Source of the DNA: Hyphomicrobiales bacterium
Lineage (GTDB): Bacteria; Pseudomonadota; Alphaproteobacteria; Rhizobiales; JAJFHB01
DNA length: 64,000 nucleotides
NCBI GenBank assembly: GCA_021775755.1
Contig: JAJFHE010000013.1
Location: forward strand, 48,950-112,949
Reading direction: 5' to 3'
Shown: piece by piece, positions 22,903 through 59,962 of the stretch
How the letters are laid out: every line of letters begins with the position of its first letter
Position numbering within the stretch: the stretch's first letter is position 1
Made by a program: the position numbers and the translations under genes
The notes under the pieces: model-generated
Seen by the model: the letters and a program-made list of their open reading frames with translations, nothing else
Databases searched by the model: none
Told to the model about the DNA's origin: nothing

Positions 22903-23151
22903 CTCATATGTTCCTTTTTGCGATTGAGTGCATTGGACGGCAGTCGTATTACCTCTTGGCCAAAGACAGTAAACGCCGAACACCCGAGAAATATATCCGT
23001 ATACGGATGTACACGGCATTAGAATTCAAATAAAAGTGAAATGTAGAATGGTTCTCTTGAGTTAATTTATTTGATTTAGCGCTGCTTTCTCGCAATCATA
23101 ATATCTGTTGATACATTGTTGATTGTAAAAATTTGGAAAGGCAGAACGTTT

Positions 23152-24627
23152 ATGGCCATATCAGACATTCACGATCAAATGGAGCAGGCCTGCCAAGATC
23201 AGTTTGGCTTCGGTGTTCGGTATGTTTTTCTTCTGGAATCATTTGCGTATTCAATAAGTCAGATGATTGCGCTTGGCGTACATCAAAATTGGCCAACCAC
23301 CCGAAAAGAAATATTTCTGAGCTTTGACGTAGACCCGGCTAATGTCGCTCTCGCAGAAAACGTTGCGACCTCGAATTTCGATGTTGACGCAAAGTATGAT
23401 GTAATCCTTCATCTCCCCAACGTTCCAACCGACGTGATCACACAATACACTGTGCAGTTTAGTGGTGGAACGGCAACCGTCGGTATCGACCCCACCATTG
23501 ACAACAAACTGTCACTTAACTTGGCTGATCGAGGTATCTATAACTGGAAAGCTCAGAGTAGACCATCCGACTTTCTTGACAAAATTAAAGCCGCCGGGTT
23601 TGTTGACGACGATGGCAATCCAGATGAACAGGAATTTCTGAGATTTGAGTTCGCTCTATTTACTTTCCAGCCAGACTATTTCTTGAGCGGCCTTTTAGAT
23701 CTTATCCAGTTCCCAGTTGTGCGGGAAGGTCTGAAGACCTTCCGCCTTGGATCTCCATTGAATATAACATTTACTCCTGACTATATTGCAGTGCATTCTG
23801 AAAATATTGAGTACGAAGATAGGCCTTGCACTTTTGGAATATCTTCAGCATCGCAAATATCGGTTCTGGTATCAGATGAGGAGATCAAGAAAAACACAAA
23901 TACCGTGTTTTATTCTGAAGAAATGGAGAATGTTGCAGTTACATTTGATGAAAAACTCGATGAAATGAGAACATTTATAAATGAAGTAAATGTAAATATA
24001 GGTCCATTTGGAGAATATCCAATTGTGTATTACTATCGGAAAAATATTTTGTATGATTACACTTTTGGAAAAGTGAAACCTTCCGTTACTTATTCGGACA
24101 GGAATCGCTTTGGACCATTTAGGTGGTACTATGCGATTACTGCCGCACTGTCCCACCTAGCAATTGCATTTCAACAAATCTCTCCGACAACGGCAAAATT
24201 AACACTGGATGTTCCGCTCGAAATGTTCGGGCAAGCCGGTGCCAGCATCCGCCTAGGCTGTGTTACTTACAATGTACTGAATGTGGCGTGTGAAGGGTCG
24301 GTGAATCCACTAACTGTTGAGGCAGAGGGTGGGGTAAATATGAACACACATGAGGTGTTCTTGTCGACCAAGCTGGCCAACGCCAATCCGCGACTCAGAT
24401 GGAGTACAGGTTTCGGGTTTCCTTTTGATCAGATTGCGACGAAATTAATCAATTGGATATTGAGGAAGGAATTTCGTAAGTTCATTGGCCGGCCTACGGA
24501 TATCCTACGAGTACCGCTCGCTGATATATCCGATGTCGCTATATCCTCGGACCTTCAGTTTGGCGCCCTGGGGTCTGATGCAAAAACTGATTCACTGTTA
24601 ATCGGTTTGCATTTGGACCGGGGCTAA
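23152..24627 (+). CDS. AT-rich orphan protein of unknown function (491 aa), horizontally acquired
   Basis: Uninterrupted 1.5 kb ORF in ~40% GC DNA in a ~63% GC genome; ATG 23152 has GGAAAGG RBS; no signal peptide, TM helix or recognisable catalytic motif. Confidence 0.65.
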   Translation: MAISDIHDQMEQACQDQFGFGVRYVFLLESFAYSISQMIALGVHQNWPTTRKEIFLSFDVDPANVALAENVATSNFDVDAKYDVILHLPNVPTDVITQYTVQFSGGTATVGIDPTIDNKLSLNLADRGIYNWKAQSRPSDFLDKIKAAGFVDDDGNPDEQEFLRFEFALFTFQPDYFLSGLLDLIQFPVVREGLKTFRLGSPLNITFTPDYIAVHSENIEYEDRPCTFGISSASQISVLVSDEEIKKNTNTVFYSEEMENVAVTFDEKLDEMRTFINEVNVNIGPFGEYPIVYYYRKNILYDYTFGKVKPSVTYSDRNRFGPFRWYYAITAALSHLAIAFQQISPTTAKLTLDVPLEMFGQAGASIRLGCVTYNVLNVACEGSVNPLTVEAEGGVNMNTHEVFLSTKLANANPRLRWSTGFGFPFDQIATKLINWILRKEFRKFIGRPTDILRVPLADISDVAISSDLQFGALGSDAKTDSLLIGLHLDRG

Positions 24628-24717
24628 CTTTCAGGCCTCGGAGTTAGTTAGGGTCAAAACCCAATCAAAGTGTTGAATTAAAGTAGCAAATCAGATTCAA
24701 AGCCTGCAATCAACGGA

Positions 24718-24945
24718 TTGAAGGCTTATATGGCTCGTTTGTTCTGGCTTTCAGATGCCCAATGGGCTGTCATTGAACCGCATCTGCCCAAAAACCAGCC
24801 GGGCGCACGGCGCGTCGATGACCGGCGTGTGATCTCCGGGATCATTCATGTCTTCAAGACGGGTTGCCGCTGGTGCGATTGTGCCGATGAGTACGTCCAT
24901 CGACAGCACCTATATCAAGGCACACCGCTCGGCCCATGGCGGTAA
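24718..24945 (+). pseudogene. IS5-family transposase orfA with internal deletion/frameshift
   Basis: Conserved N-terminus then frame divergence (CADEYVHRQHLYQ... vs expected continuation found in another frame). Confidence 0.6.
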
Positions 24946-24951
24946 AGGGGG

Positions 24952-25377
24952 GCGAAAACGCAGGCTATCGGCCCCTCGCGCGGCGGACAAACAACCAAAA
25001 TCCATGCCCTGACAGATGTCATCGGACGCCCCTTCGCCTTCACGCTCACCCCAGGCAACGTCTCAGACACAAGCGCCGCACCCGTTCTGCTGACGGCTTT
25101 GCAGGGGGCACGTTATGTCCTTGGCGATAAGGGATATGATGCTGATGCGCTTCGAAAAATGCTACGGGCTTCGAACACGGTTCCCGTCATACCCGGCCGG
25201 CGCAATCGCAAACGAACAATCGTGTATGACAAGCGTCGATACCGTGACCGTCATCTCATCGAAAACGCCTGCTGCCGCCTCAAAGACTTCCGCCGCGTCG
25301 CAACCCGTTATGACAAACTCGCCAGGATCTTCCTGTCAGCTGTCGCACTGGCAACCCTCGTCGCTTCCTGGATATGA
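24952..25377 (+). CDS. IS5-family transposase orfB (DDE domain portion)
   Basis: GDKGYD...IENACCRLKDFRRVATRYDKLARIF motif. Confidence 0.6.
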   Translation, partial: AKTQAIGPSRGGQTTKIHALTDVIGRPFAFTLTPGNVSDTSAAPVLLTALQGARYVLGDKGYDADALRKMLRASNTVPVIPGRRNRKRTIVYDKRRYRDRHLIENACCRLKDFRRVATRYDKLARIFLSAVALATLVASWI

Positions 25378-25398
25378 TTGAGTCTGAACCCTAACGGT

Positions 25399-26118
25399 TC
25401 ACTCAAGCTCATATGCATGTGTGCGGATCACACCGCCGAACTGTTCAACTTCGCACAGTATCCGTTCGCGTTTCGGCGCGAGGTTGAAAGGCGGGCGCGT
25501 CAGCACCACGCCGCTCCCGGAGTGGAGCCGGATTGACGGGCCGATAGGCTTGTCCACGTTCGCCGGAAAGTCATCGCCCGACGGCAAGTGTTCCGTGACC
25601 AGGAGATGCTGGAAAGTGCCCCGGAGTTTGCTGACAAATCGTATGATGTCATCGTTGGGTAAATGCTGCAGCACCTGCCGAACAAGCGCGACATCGCCGC
25701 CGGGCAGTTCGTTTTTGACCATGTCCAGGACGCGAAAACTCAGGTTTGCCTGCCGGTACAAGGTTCGATTTTCATCGATCAGGCCGGCGACCAGATCGCA
25801 GGCAAGATATGAAGACGAAAATTCTACGAGTTGTGCACCAACATTGAAGTCGCCGCAGCCGAGATCGACGACGTCGGGCTTCTTGCCGAGCACCCTGATA
25901 AATTCCTGCACCGCAGTCACATAGGTGTCGACGATCGCCGGGTCGTGGGAGCCACCTCCGGAGAAATACTCTCTGTTGTCGGTGTGAGCAGGGCCCCAGG
26001 CGTCATCGCGATAGATTTTCTCGAATACCTGCCGGCTGTTCAAACCGGAATAACCTGCCTCACGGCGAAACAGGCGGTTTAATTTCCGGCTTGCAAAAGC
26101 TTTGAGGCGGTCAGGCAT
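25399..26118 (-). CDS. Class I SAM-dependent methyltransferase
   Basis: VVDLGCGDFNVG motif I, acidic motif II ACDL, motif IV LRQVLQHL; start placed at MPDRLKAF inside ORF 25399..26268. Confidence 0.6.
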   Translation of the reverse strand: MPDRLKAFASRKLNRLFRREAGYSGLNSRQVFEKIYRDDAWGPAHTDNREYFSGGGSHDPAIVDTYVTAVQEFIRVLGKKPDVVDLGCGDFNVGAQLVEFSSSYLACDLVAGLIDENRTLYRQANLSFRVLDMVKNELPGGDVALVRQVLQHLPNDDIIRFVSKLRGTFQHLLVTEHLPSGDDFPANVDKPIGPSIRLHSGSGVVLTRPPFNLAPKRERILCEVEQFGGVIRTHAYELE

Positions 26119-26587
26119 CGGCGGATTGACTGTTCGTTTGGGCAATTTTCCCACCAAGGTTTCGGCCGGTCTGCATGTGCGCTGGCGCATTCGCGTGGTG
26201 AGCACGCGTGTTGACATCGCAGCAAGTGTCACCTGTCGGGTTTTATGGATTGGCGGTTCGAAGCACAATGCCCGAACTCGATAATTTCAAGAGAAATAGA
26301 TTGCCTGACCGGGCTCTCTGACGGCGAAACCCGATGCGCTTTCATGATTGTTTCTCAGCCCGCACAACGCGTGTCTGGAATGCACTGTCTTCCCCGCGAA
26401 GGATGTCTTGATGTGATGAGAATGCCATTGAAAATCTTCGCCCATACTCTTTGCGTGCAAAGTAAAATGAACTGATTTCAGGGGGATTCAACCGAACAAT
26501 GTAGTTGCGAGGCGCGTTCCCCTATGGAACATTGAGAACGGGCAATGAGTACAGTATGGGGATTAAATTGAGCATCATTGTCGCGAA

Positions 26588-26864
26588 GTGCAGCCAAGAG
26601 CAACGAGCTTGGTGCTGGCGTCGGCCGCCCTGTTTGCAGTGCTGTTGTATGTGCTTGACCAGCGCATCAAACATTGGCGGTTGATGCCATCTTATCTGCT
26701 GGCGACAATCATCATTTTCTATGCGGTCCCGTCCGTAACCGGCACATCTATCACGATGGCCGAAAGGTTGGGGCCCGCGCAAGGGCAGCATTCAGGGGTT
26801 CAGGCAATTGCTGCACGGATCTGGCTGTCCAGTGAGTTAGTCGTCCGAATGGAGCGCAGCTTAA
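26588..26864 (+). pseudogene. N-terminal two-TM membrane segment, probably the frameshifted 5' part of the downstream coiled-coil gene
   Basis: LVLASAALFAVLLYVL and YLLATIIIFYAVPSV hydrophobic helices in frame 2; coiled-coil repeats continue in frame 0 immediately after a TAA at 26862; tandem ACAGATACAGAC at the junction. Confidence 0.35.
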
Positions 26865-27419
26865 GCAAGGTACACGAAGATCAATACAGATACAGACGAG
26901 CTACAGGCCGAACAGACCGAAATCCGGCATCTGAAAGACACGGTTGTCGCGCTGCGGACAAAGATGGAGTCTCTGCAGTTCGACGCCCAGGAAAATGTGC
27001 AGCGTGCTGTTGCCGACAGCAACGATGAGATTATACAGCTTCGCGAGACGGTCAGCGCCTTGCGCGAGGAGTTGGATGATCTAAACCACGAAAAAACCCG
27101 TGCCGTGCAGGAGGTTCTCGCGAGCCATCGCGACGAAATTGAACAGCTCACAAACACCGCACAAGCGCTGCGCGACGAACTGGACAACCTGAACCACGAG
27201 AAGAACACGGCGGTCCAGGAGATGTTGCAGCAAAGCCGTGAGGAAACGGGGCAGCTGCGCGAAACCGCCCAGGCCGTTCGAGATGAGTTGGATGCCGTCA
27301 AGTTCAGCTATGAGGGCAGGATTGAAGAGTTAGAGCGTACGGCGCGGGAGGACCGCAGGCAGTTGCACGAAACGATCACCAAGCTGAGGGAGGAACTGGA
27401 GGGGAAACATGGCAAGTGA
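26865..27419 (+). CDS. Coiled-coil repeat protein (three ~38-aa repeats EIxQLxxTAQALRDELDxLNHEKxxAVQE), translationally coupled to downstream cyclase
   Basis: Repeat-rich heptad sequence; first ATG only at 26964 although repeat-like coding starts right after stop at 26862; stop overlaps start of 27409 gene by 11 nt. Confidence 0.5.
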   Translation, partial: ARYTKINTDTDELQAEQTEIRHLKDTVVALRTKMESLQFDAQENVQRAVADSNDEIIQLRETVSALREELDDLNHEKTRAVQEVLASHRDEIEQLTNTAQALRDELDNLNHEKNTAVQEMLQQSREETGQLRETAQAVRDELDAVKFSYEGRIEELERTAREDRRQLHETITKLREELEGKHGK

Positions 27420-29706
27420 CGTGCTGGACGACCCGGCCAAGATACAATCCAAGCGTTTGGCGGAGACACGCAAGAGCCTGCGAAAGGCAGAAATGCTGCT
27501 GGAAGCTTCGCGCAAAATTGCGTCGTTCGATAACCTGGACGATGCGCTGGAGGCGCTTGTCGAGCTTATCTCGAAGGAATTGGACGCCGAACGCAGCAGC
27601 CTGTTTCTGAACGATACCCTGACCGGGGAGCTTTACTCGCGCATTGCGCAGAAAACCCTGTCGCGTGAAATCCGTATGTTGAACAACGTTGGAATCGCCG
27701 GTGCGGTTTTCCAAAGCGGCACCGGTGAAATCATTCCCGACCCCTATGCGGACGCACGCTTCAATTCAGATGTCGATGAGCAAACCGGTTTCACCACCCG
27801 GTCCATCGTTTGTGCGCCGGTGAAAACGGCGGCGGGTGAAGTGATCGGTGTTACCCAGGCACTGAACAAGAAAAAGGGGAAATTCGGACAAGACGATCTG
27901 GAGCTTCTCGAAGCGATTGCGGCGCAAGCCGCCGTAACCCTGCAGAGCAAGCAGTTTGTTGAGCGGATGGAGAAGAACCGCGCACAGGAGATTGAGTTCC
28001 TCAACATTGTTTCAGACGTCACATCCGAACTGGAACTTGGCAGCTTGCTCACCAAAGTCATGGGTGAGGCGACGCGCATGCTGAATGCTGAGCGCTCGAC
28101 CCTGTTTCTCAACGATGAAAAGACGAACGAGCTGTTTTCGCGTGTAGCCATGGGCGATGCATTGGGCGAGATCCGGCTGCCCAATCATTTGGGCATAGCG
28201 GGCGCGGTCTTCACGTCGGGACAGACGGTCAGCATTCCATATGCCTATGCGGACCTTCGGTTCAATCCGGCATTCGACAAGCAGACCGGGTTCTTCACCC
28301 GCTCCATCCTGTGTGTTCCGGTGACGAACAAAGACGGCAAGATGATCGGCGTCACGCAGGTTCTGAACAAGAAAACCGGTTCGTTCACGGACGACGATGA
28401 GGCGCGGCTTCGGGCCTTTACCGCCCAGGTCTCCATTGCTCTGGAAAACGCCAAATTGTTCGAAGATGTCCAGAGCATGAAAAACTACAATGAGAGCATG
28501 CTGGAGAGCATGTCGAACGGCGTCATCACGATGGACGAGGAAGGAAAAATCGTCACCTGCAACGGCGCCGGCATGCGCATCATGAACGTGGAACCGGCCG
28601 ACATTCTGGGCAAGCCGGCAGTCGAGTTCTTCGTAAACAAAAACGCATGGCTGCCGGACCGCATCAAAAAGGTCGAGGAACGCGGGGAAGCGGACGTGCT
28701 CATGGACGTTGAACTGGAGTTCGGCGGCGAAACAATTTCGGCCAACATCAACGTGCTGCCTCTCCTTGGCGAGAAGGCGAAGAAGCTCGGTTCGATGGTA
28801 ATGATCGAAGATATTTCATCCGAAAAACGGATGAAGTCGACCATGTCCCGCTACATCGATCCAGGCATTGCCGACCAGCTTTTGGCAGGCAGCGATGCGG
28901 AGAACTTTCTGGGTGGAAAAAGCAGCGAAATCACGGTGCTTTTCTCCGATGTTCGCAGCTTCACAACTCTAACCGAGTCGCTGGGCGCGCAAGGCACGGT
29001 GGAGATGTTGAACGAGTATTTCACCATCATGGTCGACTGCATTACCCGTGAGGGCGGCATGCTCGACAAGTTCATCGGCGACGCCATCATGGCGGGCTTC
29101 GGCATCCCGATATCCTATGACGACGATGAGGACCGCGCTGTCCGGGCGGCCATCGCCATGATTGTGGAACTTTGGGAGTGGAACAAGCACCGCGAGGCAC
29201 AAAACAAGCTGGCGATCGACCACGGTGTGGGGCTTAACACGGGGCTTGTCGTCTCCGGTAACATCGGTTCGCCGAAACGCATGGACTATACGATGATAGG
29301 CGATGGAGTGAACCTTGCCGCACGGCTGGAGTCGGCTTGCAAGCAATACTCGGCCCGCATTTTGATCAGCGAATTCACGCGCGCGAAGCTGAAGGGGACT
29401 TACCGGTTGCGCGACGTTGACATGGTGGTGGTGAAGGGCAAGACCGAGCCGGTCAAGATTTTTGAAGTGCTCGATTATCACACGCCGGAAACCTTTCCAA
29501 ACCTGATGGACGGCGTTGGATATTTCAACGATGCGATCCAGCATTATCGCGCCGGTGAGTGGGATAAATCCGTTGCAAAGTTTTCCGAGGCCCTGACGGC
29601 TAATCCGGGCGACGAACTGGTAAATACCTATATCGCCCGCTGCGAACAGCTGCGGGCTAGTCCGCCAAAAGACTGGGACGGTGTCTGGGTTATGACTTCG
29701 AAATAA
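27409..29706 (+). CDS. GAF-GAF-PAS sensor class III adenylate/guanylate cyclase with C-terminal TPR-like tail
   Basis: Two GAF-like blocks (…FLNDTLTGELYSR…GIAGAVFQSG…CAPV and …FLNDEKTNELFSR…GIAGAVFTSG…CVPV), PAS (MLESMSNGVITMDEEGKIVTCN), cyclase motifs (ITVLFSDVRSFTTL…KFIGDAIMAGFG…GLNTGLVVSGNIGS…DYTMIGDGVNLAARLE). Confidence 0.8.
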   Translation: MASDVLDDPAKIQSKRLAETRKSLRKAEMLLEASRKIASFDNLDDALEALVELISKELDAERSSLFLNDTLTGELYSRIAQKTLSREIRMLNNVGIAGAVFQSGTGEIIPDPYADARFNSDVDEQTGFTTRSIVCAPVKTAAGEVIGVTQALNKKKGKFGQDDLELLEAIAAQAAVTLQSKQFVERMEKNRAQEIEFLNIVSDVTSELELGSLLTKVMGEATRMLNAERSTLFLNDEKTNELFSRVAMGDALGEIRLPNHLGIAGAVFTSGQTVSIPYAYADLRFNPAFDKQTGFFTRSILCVPVTNKDGKMIGVTQVLNKKTGSFTDDDEARLRAFTAQVSIALENAKLFEDVQSMKNYNESMLESMSNGVITMDEEGKIVTCNGAGMRIMNVEPADILGKPAVEFFVNKNAWLPDRIKKVEERGEADVLMDVELEFGGETISANINVLPLLGEKAKKLGSMVMIEDISSEKRMKSTMSRYIDPGIADQLLAGSDAENFLGGKSSEITVLFSDVRSFTTLTESLGAQGTVEMLNEYFTIMVDCITREGGMLDKFIGDAIMAGFGIPISYDDDEDRAVRAAIAMIVELWEWNKHREAQNKLAIDHGVGLNTGLVVSGNIGSPKRMDYTMIGDGVNLAARLESACKQYSARILISEFTRAKLKGTYRLRDVDMVVVKGKTEPVKIFEVLDYHTPETFPNLMDGVGYFNDAIQHYRAGEWDKSVAKFSEALTANPGDELVNTYIARCEQLRASPPKDWDGVWVMTSK

Positions 29707-29751
29707 GGCCCGCAACGGCAATGTCGACTTCTTCGGTTTTTCGGAACCGCT

Positions 29752-30519
29752 CTAGAAGGCGATGTTTGAAACGAGCCGGCAGGCCTTGCATTGGAAATCG
29801 AATATCGGAGCAATCGGTTCGTCCAGTAGCCATGCGCCGCCGCAGGACGGGCAGGGGCGTTTGCTTTCATTGTCGTGTGTCCGTCGTGTGCCGCTTGCGC
29901 GGTAGAGATAGTAATACGTTGGAGTGCCGGTGCGTTCCTCGATCTCCCGGCAAAGCTCACGCCCTCGCCGCGCCAGCGAGCTCTCATGATCCGACATCTG
30001 CGCAATGCCGAACCGTTCGCCGGTACGGCAGTTCATCTGCAGTGTGTCACAGGCCTTGTAATCGTCGTTCCAGATCAACAGTTCGTAGTGTTCATCGTGG
30101 TCCGACGCCGGCAGGGAGTAAAGCGGGATGACGCCGAAGCAGTCGAGGCACTTTACCGGCGGTGCCGACGACAGGTAGTCCGTCTTCAGGACAAAGGCGG
30201 AGCTTTTTTTGCAGGCGCAAGGGCACCAGCCTTCGACGTCCCTTCCCTTGAGTACAAGAGAGGGCTTCCCGACGCCTTGTGATTTCAGTTCCCGAAGCGC
30301 CTTTTTTACCCACTTGTTTGCATGACGTTTGTCGAGTGAGCGTTTCTCGGGAATGGTCAGCCATGCGCGCAACCGGCCTTTGGATGTGAGATGAAGGTCG
30401 GCGAAGGTGTTTGCCTGGCCACTTTTTACCCAGGCTCCCAGCAGGGTGTATATGGCTTGCTCGGCCTTTTTCCGACCGCCCTTTTCGGGAATGTTGAATG
30501 ACACTTGCGCGAGATACAT
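29752..30519 (-). CDS. Cys-rich Zn-ribbon protein (possibly DUF2310-like)
   Basis: 255 aa with paired Cys clusters (CPCAC, CLDC, CPSCGGAW, CKAC); basic N-terminal half; family assignment from memory only. Confidence 0.45.
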   Translation of the reverse strand: MYLAQVSFNIPEKGGRKKAEQAIYTLLGAWVKSGQANTFADLHLTSKGRLRAWLTIPEKRSLDKRHANKWVKKALRELKSQGVGKPSLVLKGRDVEGWCPCACKKSSAFVLKTDYLSSAPPVKCLDCFGVIPLYSLPASDHDEHYELLIWNDDYKACDTLQMNCRTGERFGIAQMSDHESSLARRGRELCREIEERTGTPTYYYLYRASGTRRTHDNESKRPCPSCGGAWLLDEPIAPIFDFQCKACRLVSNIAF

Positions 30520-30839
30520 ATCGATCCTTAACCCGTTGGCGGCGTTTGTCTTTTCATCTTAGCGCCTGAACGGTCCCAATGCGAGTGTTAGGCAGGCAGC
30601 CGCCCGCCGCCGGTGGCTGGGTGGGCGCGTGGTTGATTGTGACATTATTGCATCACTAAAATGCTGCGCCGCACCATTGCTGCCCGGCGCCGCTTTTTCG
30701 CCCCATTCCGGCTTATAACGCCGCACCCCGGATCGACTACCGGTCCGAGCCCCAGCGGGTGGAGTTCTGTATGCTCCCCTGGCGCGGCGGCCCTCTGGGT
30801 CGTTTTCCGTGTGCCGTGGGCCGGACGGGTGCGGTTTGG

Positions 30840-30912
30840 GTGCGCATAGCTCAATTGGTAGAGCTCTGGCCTCTAAAGCCAGTGGGTGCGGGTTCGATTC
30901 CCGCTGCTACTA
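30840..30912 (+). tRNA. tRNA-like element (tRNA-Trp-like body, anticodon loop CUCUAAA = CUA; acceptor stem not base-paired) - probable tRNA pseudogene / integration-site remnant
   Basis: Canonical D-arm TAGCTCAATTGGTAGAGC, anticodon stem CTGGC/GCCAG, T-arm GCGGGTTCGATTCCCGC; but 5' GTGCGCA vs 3' TGCTACT cannot pair; no CCA. Confidence 0.45.
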
Positions 30913-30993
30913 CGCGATATGCCCAGAGGTTGGGCGACAGATTGCAAATCTGTTGGCAGATAGCTTGTGAGGTTCGATTCCTCAATCGCTCCA
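30913..30993 (+). tRNA. Second tRNA-like element abutting the first (GCA anticodon, 14-nt variable region, T-arm, 3' ...TCCA; acceptor pairs only 5/7)
   Basis: D-arm GCCCAGAGGTTGGGC, anticodon arm ACAGA-TTGCAAA-TCTGT, T-arm TGAGGTTCGATTCCTCA, 3' ATCGCTCCA; 5' ACGCGAT mismatched at first two pairs. Confidence 0.35.
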
Positions 30994-31425
30994 ATTCGGC
31001 CTTCCATGCCGAACCAGATTGGAAATCTGGCGATATCAATTGGGCGCCCCGGAGTGTGCCCGGCAATGCACCGGCAGAAATTTTCCGCAAGTGCGGAGGG
31101 TGTGGCGGGTGCGGCGCCGCGAGCGGGACGCTCAGCGTCCGTGCATGAGGGGGCAACCGCGACACGGCGCCCAGGCGCCGGCTCGATGCCGTATCCTGCC
31201 CGAGCACGAAGTTTCGTGTTCAGGCGGAGCGGAGGAGCGCCGGTGCCCCGGCCCATTTGTCCCGGGCGTCCCCGGCACGGATCCGCGGTCCGTTCGTTCA
31301 CGGCCGCTCCGGGGCGCCTCTATGAGGCGCCGATGCGCAATGTGACGATGAGTGAAACTGAAACTTGAGAAAGGAAGACAAACGCCATGCGAGAGCGCTG
31401 ACGATTTGTGTGAAAGGAGAAGAAC

Positions 31426-59557: not shown

Positions 59558-59962
<405 letters not shown>

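Follow-up and report, generated by a model that had tools for sequence, protein, structure and literature searches.

The stretch of DNA analyzed here, 64,000 nucleotides (nt) of contig JAJFHE010000013.1 (assembly GCA_021775755.1, positions 48,950 to 112,949) from a Hyphomicrobiales bacterium and hereafter called the window, carries two transfer RNA (tRNA)-like elements, W1 and W2, situated head to tail ahead of a gene for a stomatin-like SPFH/Band-7 protein. Both are real tRNA-like elements; the pair is maintained as structured RNA with anticodons free to vary, it is inherited together with the SPFH gene and it is embedded in a larger covarying RNA. We consider it probable that W1 and W2 form the core of a conserved structured RNA of about 700 nt, which runs in the same direction as the SPFH gene, ends at its start codon and would serve as a tRNA mimic. 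Its function, as we infer it from sequence, would be that of a non-decoding mimic in an RNA-damage or translation-stress module.

W1 and W2 were the sole tRNA-like matches when the whole window was searched with Rfam, the other match being an RNase P RNA. W1 was recognized by the tRNA model RF00005 with E = 5e-10, while W2 barely exceeded the gathering score of that model (29 bits; scores of both are given in Table 1). Two head-to-tail tRNA-like bodies on the forward strand, as an earlier reading of the letters alone had proposed (hereafter the original prediction), are therewith confirmed. W1 has a Trp-like body and a canonical 7-nt anticodon loop, CUCUAAA (30871-30877), with U33, A37 and the triplet CUA at 30873-30875. 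Its acceptor strands, which had been thought unable to pair, form six pairs if C4 is bulged (G1-C, U2-A, G3-U, G5-C, C6-G and A7-U, in alignments to the Rfam model and to our own) and four of seven without the bulge. The 3' end reads ACG where CCA is expected, so that no CCA is encoded, and position 73 is U. The loop of W2 is UUGCAAA with the anticodon GCA at 30944-30946, its variable region of 14 nt (30954-30967) is without a stem, its acceptor has only 5 base pairs (bp; GCGAT at 30914-18 with ATCGC at 30985-89) and its 3' end is UCCA (30990-30993), i.e. U73 followed by an encoded CCA. The description of the W1 loop and of these four peculiarities of W2 in the original prediction thus holds in the sequence, and its statement that no spacer separates the elements needs a small correction, a gap of 2 nt (30912-13) being present between the Rfam matches. 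The ARAGORN check that it had proposed came out divided: at default settings W2 was called as tRNA-Cys(gca) at 30912-30992 and W1 was missed. ARAGORN found no transfer-messenger RNA (tmRNA) in the window.

Relatives of the pair were sought upstream of homologues of the SPFH gene, in several metagenome-assembled genomes (MAGs) and in 80 more loci from a metagenome scan for SPFH relatives; these loci are mostly metagenomic and carry no taxonomy. Loci whose SPFH protein is at least 46% identical to that of the window are referred to as the close clade. A pair of T-loop motifs is present upstream of the gene and on the same strand in 28 of the 28 close-clade loci with enough upstream DNA, and in 31 of 49 loci below 46% identity, the second T-loop being situated 295-682 nt (median about 390 nt) ahead of the SPFH start codon. 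In a Rhodobacterales MAG, whose SPFH protein is of 59% identity, the gene is preceded at about 300 nt by two tRNA-like elements that abut each other, and two other MAGs have one or two tRNA-like elements upstream of theirs. Among the metagenome loci ARAGORN reported a tRNA or tRNA-like gene upstream and on the same strand at nearly every SPFH copy with enough DNA, often as two abutting calls with unrelated or malformed "anticodons". The arrangement of pair and SPFH gene recurs in dozens of unrelated contigs with different upstream neighbors, and clustering of the genes in the fetched loci gave no conserved neighbor in the close clade besides the SPFH gene. No full cloverleaf was found upstream of the Pseudomonas and Escherichia coli homologues. 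A "mini" module, which consists of a GNRA-capped hairpin and a T-arm and has neither acceptor nor D-arm, takes the place of the second element in L016, L019, L038 and some 18 more distant loci. Because of this replacement it can be said that the second position tolerates drastic remodelling, which fits the aberrant W2.

The anatomy of the elements was examined in 21 close-clade loci, aligned by MAFFT, with 500 shuffles as a control. In the first elements 93.4% of cells are paired, against 77.8% when shuffled, and in the second elements 88.4% against 73.6%; none of the 500 shuffles reached the observed value in either case. First elements possess a full acceptor of 7 bp, which is 87.8% paired with covariation at all seven positions. 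The G3-U70 wobble is found in 15 of the 21, the pairs beside it covarying freely, and an encoded NCCA in 16, while neither is found in any of the 21 second elements. The second elements start at, or overlapping, the CCA of the first; the inner three pairs of their acceptor are 100% paired, position 4 is paired in 16 of 21 and the outer three are mostly unpaired. The anticodon arms of the two types are also distinct. In first elements the stem is a conserved CCGGN/NCCGG and the loops are non-canonical, 5-8 nt long and of 20 distinct sequences in 21, while in second elements the stem is 100% paired with both-side changes in all five pairs, the loop is of 7 nt in 21 of 21, canonical in U33 and R37 in 18, and displays 13 different triplets. 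From the covariation of stems and the variability of loops it follows that the cloverleaf stems are under selection as RNA and that the anticodon is their least constrained part. The CUA and GCA anticodons of the window look incidental, because stems covary while loops differ in almost all loci. This strengthens the doubt which the original prediction had itself expressed about amber suppression, the anticodon being the least conserved part of either element, and its fallback proposal of a tRNA-derived structured RNA is the one that the covarying stems, placed within a larger covarying RNA, now support.

To place W1 and W2 within this family we used two covariance models, both built without the window sequence, one of the first-element type (R1) and one of the second-element type (R2). 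W1 scores 63.1 bits on R1 and 65.7 bits on R2, and since true family members cross-score at 40-65 bits between the two models its assignment to a type by score is ambiguous; it retains G3-U70 and the position of a first element. The window pair is a divergent member of the family, in which W1 has lost the CCA and has a bulged acceptor and W2 is barely tRNA-like.

The pair is only a part of the unit, in which a putative promoter is followed by a 5' domain, the first and second tRNA-like elements, two hairpins resembling anticodon arms, a domain of about 275 nt, a minimal open reading frame (mini-ORF) and the SPFH gene (Table 1). In relatives a CTTGCG -35-like box is found about 17 nt upstream of the -10-like box, and this promoter-like motif lies 130-150 nt ahead of the first element. 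In the window the -35 box is weak, and a generic promoter scan favours another site, at 30633-30662. A sigma-54 motif is absent upstream of the first elements in the clade of the window. The 5' region is conserved over about 110 nt upstream of the pair; within its structured domain the helices of the window are 30757-30763/30775-30780, 30782-30787/30807-30812 and 30789-30793/30797-30801. Directly 3' of the second element relatives possess a counterpart of the first hairpin (H1) with a stem of 4-6 bp and a 7-nt loop. A hairpin of this form, with a stem of at least 4 bp and a 7-nt loop of variable sequence, is present no more than about 60 nt past the second element in all 22 loci examined, mostly at the position of the second hairpin (H2), and two such hairpins are present in 12 of the 22, while shuffled sequences give 3.5 on average and 10 at most.

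The 3' domain measures about 200-275 nt in the family. Its closing helix, of 13 bp over 21 loci, is 95.6% paired, with 11 of the 13 pairs changing on both sides, and for the whole predicted structure of the domain 89.3% of cells are paired, against 72.5% when shuffled (0 of 500 shuffles reaching the observed value) and 34-51% when the partners are slid. The closing helix of the window differs in sequence from that of the relatives. A local hairpin equivalent to the one that competes with it in the window was found in at least 10 of 20 relatives whose 3' tails were folded alone, and as modelled the hairpin and the closing helix constitute a possible switch. A Shine-Dalgarno-like sequence with a start codon, at most five sense codons and a stop, all just before the SPFH start, is present in 23 of 60 loci, and 21 of these 23 belong to the 29 loci of at least 46% identity; the shuffled control yielded 3.1 on average and never more than 9. 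Rfam 15, searched in E-value mode over 30600-31400, has no family for the flanking domains and returned only tRNA, tRNA-Sec (36.5 bits, below its gathering score of 47) and noise. ARAGORN at 90% thresholds placed a long "tRNA-Thr(tgt)" at 31225-31312 (+), inside the 3' domain, and weak cloverleaf or T-arm calls were also obtained in the spacers of L038, L044, L050, L051, L056, L083 and L089. The 3' domain may itself contain tRNA-derived pieces.

Table 1. Parts of the RNA unit and the adjoining SPFH gene, in window positions (loops in square brackets)
Feature	Position	Strand	Basis or remark
Possible -10 box TATAAC of the putative unit promoter	30714-30719	+	Inferred; aligned with the CTATAG/CTTATA box of relatives
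Conserved 5' structured domain	30750-30819	+	RNAalifold, 28 loci: 20 pairs, 16 with both-side changes
W1, first tRNA-like element	30840-30911	+	Rfam RF00005, 58.3 bits
W2, second, divergent tRNA-like element	30914-30993	+	RF00005, 34 bits (30914-30990); ARAGORN tRNA-Cys
H1, anticodon-arm-like hairpin TTCGGC [CTTCCAT] GCCGAA	30995-31013	+	Read from sequence
H2, anticodon-arm-like hairpin CCAGA [UUGGAAA] UCUGG	31014-31030	+	Near-copy of the W2 anticodon arm
3' structured domain	31043-31318	+	Closed by helix 31043-31056/31305-31318, 14 pairs including one G-U
Competing local hairpin GGCGCCUC uau GAGGCGCC	31313-31331	+	Read from sequence; uses the 3' strand of the closing helix
Shine-Dalgarno-like AAAGGAAG with mini-ORF AUG CGA GAG CGC UGA	31370-31401 (mini-ORF 31387-31401)	+	Spacer 11 nt; found by eye, not by regular expression
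Stomatin-like SPFH/Band-7 gene, 382 amino acids	31427-32575	+	Pfam Band_7, E = 5.6e-29, residues 152-323

The SPFH gene begins 433 nt downstream of the pair and on its strand, W1 and W2 occupying a 907-nt gap between it and a DUF2310 gene. The nearest solved relatives of its protein are PH stomatin, stomatin, QmcA and HflK. It has no hydrophobic stretch of membrane-span length (the highest Kyte-Doolittle average over 19 residues is 1.13) and is thus predicted to be soluble. No full-length homologue of it was found in the phage collection, and a search for the exact protein matched only two short Logan contigs of a single run, SRR15505515. The DUF2310 Zn-ribbon gene ("possibly nucleic-acid-binding", 29752-30519, -) is divergent from the RNA unit. 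Upstream ORFs gave no specific family in PADLOC, PHROGs or NCBIfam. At 26964-29706 (+) an ORF of 151 amino acids with a coiled coil overlaps the start of a gene of 765 amino acids for a GAF-GAF-PAS-adenylate/guanylate cyclase. A stretch of low guanine plus cytosine (GC) content, 0.40-0.49 against about 0.61 elsewhere, is found at 23001-25000, is probably foreign DNA, and carries an ORF of 503 amino acids (23116-24627, +) with no match in Pfam, NCBIfam, PHROGs or PADLOC. The original prediction had situated the pair at the boundary of an island; this stretch is the nearest of low GC and, because it is about 6 kilobases (kb) distant, the pair is not directly on a compositional boundary. The RNase P RNA mentioned above is a full-length class A molecule at 59565-59960 (+; Rfam 322.5 bits); it belongs to the enzyme expected to process tRNA-like bodies and is otherwise unrelated to the unit.

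More distant SPFH homologues are found inside or right after arrays of up to 21 canonical tRNAs. Of 26 distant loci, 13 carry RtcB downstream of the SPFH gene, and an HNH endonuclease is encoded upstream in 8 distant loci of the tRNA-array type; the identities of RtcB, HNH and RlaP were confirmed by Pfam. Since tRNAs directly follow the SPFH stop in array loci, the gene there is embedded in a tRNA operon. The trio Arg(gcg)-Gln-Leu(cag) was noted about 50-100 nt 3' of the stop in L058, L076 and L087, and a single tRNA of the Arg/Gln/Leu set at the equivalent position in L053, L070 and L073. A conserved ORF of 320-341 amino acids with no Pfam match (L050 3133-4158) is situated immediately 3' of the SPFH gene in L050, L052, L055 and L068 and after RtcB in L065. 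The arrays known as L-arrays, with HNH and RtcB neighbors, take part in a translational-stress response in Anabaena; L-operons contain embedded protein genes, among which SPFH/Band-7 is not mentioned (PMC8421152). The Pseudomonas loci have the gene order SPFH-RtcB-RlaP, with RtcB in all of them, and the rtc locus of P. aeruginosa includes an SPFH gene, PaFlo8 (PMC13086221). Damaged RNA is extended with nucleotides by RlaP, which contributes to the recovery of tRNA function (PMC12776372). E. coli has a cassette of slipin, RlaP and zeta-toxin genes between yjbD and lysC, which is present in 1629 of 5426 complete genomes (about 30%), for example in strain WAT (NZ_CP012380.1 4473553-4476968; L095 3501-6916). 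The 530-nt gap upstream of this cassette contains TGGCACGCTTCTCGCA, a promoter of the sigma-54 type, and a single T-arm, TGGGTTCGATTCCCA, with no RNA annotated there by RefSeq and no Rfam family found in E-value mode.

According to the explanation that we favour, the RNA would be made as a leader or precursor, and its tRNA-like bodies would be recognized by tRNA-handling enzymes, by way of RNase P or RNase Z processing and possibly also by alanyl-tRNA synthetase (AlaRS) through G3-U70. The G3-U70 pair is the identity pair of AlaRS, and as relatives carry it together with NCCA an alanylation similar to that of tmRNA is suggested. The anticodon-loop mimics and an oligomeric SPFH scaffold could act as cofactors or baits in the face of tRNA or ribosome damage (anticodon nucleases, translation stress), for which Y RNA with Ro60 next to RtcB offers a parallel, and the competing helix and the mini-ORF may couple translation of the SPFH gene to the state of damage or stress. 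A fuller version of this picture, which we put forward tentatively and with more doubt than belief, is that of a previously undescribed, large composite RNA of about 700 nt without an Rfam family, of which the pair would be no more than the visible core, made up of a covarying 5' domain, an alanine-identity, CCA-ending mimic whose loop is deliberately non-decoding, another mimic with a canonical and hypervariable loop, two anticodon-arm mimics, a switchable 3' domain and a start-X-stop mini-ORF. Such an RNA would be a sentinel or cofactor that baits tRNA-targeting toxins or senses translation stress, and that controls or loads a cage of soluble stomatin-like protein. If this were true, bacteria would possess an equivalent of the Ro-Y RNA or vault-type ribonucleoprotein.

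Several observations weigh against the explanation of the pair as the core of a tRNA-mimicking RNA. RtcB is absent from the 64-kb window (tblastn gave nothing better than E = 0.4), it is likewise missing downstream of the SPFH gene in all 21 close-clade loci whose sequence continues for 2.5 kb or more on that side, and because of this the link of the close clade to RNA repair rests on SPFH homology alone; a search of the window for RlaP was likewise negative. PADLOC, PHROGs and NCBIfam give the SPFH protein no specific name. W2 is a poor fit to both family models, with 21.8 bits on R1 and no match on R2, and inside its closing helix the 3' domain of the window carries insertions and gives a poor alignment. 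The variable loops fit relaxed constraint equally well as diversifying selection, and the support for all members of the family, that of the window included, comes from sequence alone.

The conserved arrangement could also be attributed to a purely cis-acting leader, in which the tRNA-like bodies are RNase P/RNase Z punctuation or stabilizers of a long 5' untranslated region that, by means of its competing helices and mini-ORF, controls how the SPFH gene is translated, with no role in trans. The promoter-like site and the SPFH start do enclose every part of the unit, all on one strand, the competing hairpin and the mini-ORF with its Shine-Dalgarno sequence are directly ahead of the gene, and distant homologues are within tRNA operons, in which they would be expected to be co-transcribed and processed in the manner of tRNAs. 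Punctuation, however, leaves unexplained the G3-U70 and encoded NCCA of first elements, the canonical U33/R37 loop of second elements and the conservation in form of two further anticodon-arm mimics, and we regard a leader of this sort as plausible, though rather unlikely. A working role in translation, with W1 as a natural amber suppressor and/or W2 as the tRNA-Cys of the cell, we judge highly improbable. It would account for the canonical 7-nt loop of W1 with U33, CUA and A37, and for the GCA, U73 and encoded CCA of W2, these three being identity elements of cysteinyl-tRNA synthetase, as well as for the tRNA-Cys call of ARAGORN. Yet the acceptor of W1 is bulged and lacks CCA, and its U73 is not a discriminator of the Trp type, W2 has 5 acceptor pairs instead of 7, an unstructured variable region of 14 nt instead of 4-5 nt and a score of 34 bits, and among the orthologous elements the anticodons are unrelated or the loops malformed. 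In none of 185,579 species genomes did an exact-pattern scan detect a Trp-like tRNA body with the CUCUAAA loop; the pattern used matches the window, whose source genome and its close relatives are not in the set scanned. The TAG stop is used by one of 18 long ORFs of the window, a census too small to bear on suppression.

The original prediction had preferred to see in the pair the att-site scars that mobile elements leave when they integrate one after another at a tRNA gene. Genes for tRNA are common integration sites, and a stretch of lower GC with unannotatable ORFs is present upstream at 23-25 kb. But no element segment of 12 nt or more has a second copy in the window, save for internal self-matches and chance matches, a scan of five upstream ORFs (23116-30519) gave no integrase domain, W1 and W2 are each a nearly complete body and not a 3' fragment, and the pair is inherited with the SPFH gene across dozens of contexts, so that this origin is hardly credible. 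It remains to consider whether W1 and W2 are decaying and now functionless remnants of an ancestral, horizontally acquired tRNA array beside a passenger SPFH gene. Distant homologues in arrays of up to 21 canonical tRNAs with HNH and RtcB, as in L-arrays (PMC8421152), would suit this explanation, and W1 and W2 are the most degenerate copies seen. Neutral decay, however, would erode pairing and give patchy loss, while the elements occur without exception in the 28 close-clade loci, within a constrained range of distances, with compensatory changes in all stems and with conserved non-tRNA domains on either side; we therefore think it very unlikely that they are mere remnants.

Elements of the W1/W2 type probably mark a conserved module of the ribonucleoprotein type. 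Programs that search for tRNAs would label them tRNA-Cys, suppressor, "Pyl" or pseudo-tRNA, and in this way they could be misread as signals of recoding or integration. Their anatomy offers handles, namely a first element with G3-U70 and NCCA, a second with a truncated acceptor, extra hairpins, flanking domains, a competing helix and a mini-ORF. The family has a bearing on the role of soluble bacterial SPFH proteins and on the sensing and repair of tRNA damage, and the slipin-RlaP locus of E. coli is a tractable system in which to study it.

Among known systems, L-arrays (2021, PMC8421152) resemble the surroundings of the distant SPFH homologues, which are situated inside such arrays with HNH and RtcB, while in the window canonical tRNAs are absent and the degenerate W1 and W2 stand by themselves. 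With natural CUA suppressor tRNAs W1 shares a canonical loop that reads CUA, but its acceptor is defective, its CCA is missing and the orthologues do not keep its anticodon. The tRNA-like domain of tmRNA is, like the first elements of the family, a non-decoding mimic with G3-U70 and CCA. Unlike it, the family elements are complete cloverleaves and not split ends, there is no frame for a tag peptide, and the mini-ORF has 2-5 codons with its own Shine-Dalgarno sequence and start codon. The YrlA-type Y RNA that accompanies Rsr (Ro60) by rtcBA is likewise a noncoding RNA that contains a tRNA-like module, and it is encoded next to RNA-repair genes and to a scaffold protein that assembles into a ring or cage. 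It differs in that the window RNA scores 17.4 bits on RF02553 against a gathering score of 69 and has no Ro-binding stem, and in that no TROVE-domain gene was found among the window neighbors scanned, the partner here being SPFH.

A further system is b7a-tRNA, reportedly a computational prediction published by Burroughs and Aravind in Nucleic Acids Res in 2016, according to a paper that cites them. We found no Rfam family for it, no test of its pairing with Band-7 in the searchable literature, and nothing further there on SPFH/Band-7 with tRNA arrays or tRNA-like RNAs. The citing paper describes it as a predicted noncoding RNA strongly resembling tRNA, located beside a Band-7/SPFH gene and in many genomes next to RtcB, experimentally unvalidated, and proposed as a functional analogue of YrlA-Ro60 with which it would be interchangeable (bioRxiv 10.1101/312249). 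To the extent of this description, the window differs in having no RtcB nearby, two abutting elements instead of one, covarying 5' and 3' domains, extra hairpins and a mini-ORF. In common with b7a-tRNA, W1 and W2 resemble an authentic tRNA cloverleaf (by Rfam, and for W1 with 63-66 bits on the family models) and adjoin a Band-7/SPFH gene, an adjacency that is conserved among homologues. On the same description, the W1/W2 unit belongs to the b7a-tRNA kind, which was already predicted in 2016.

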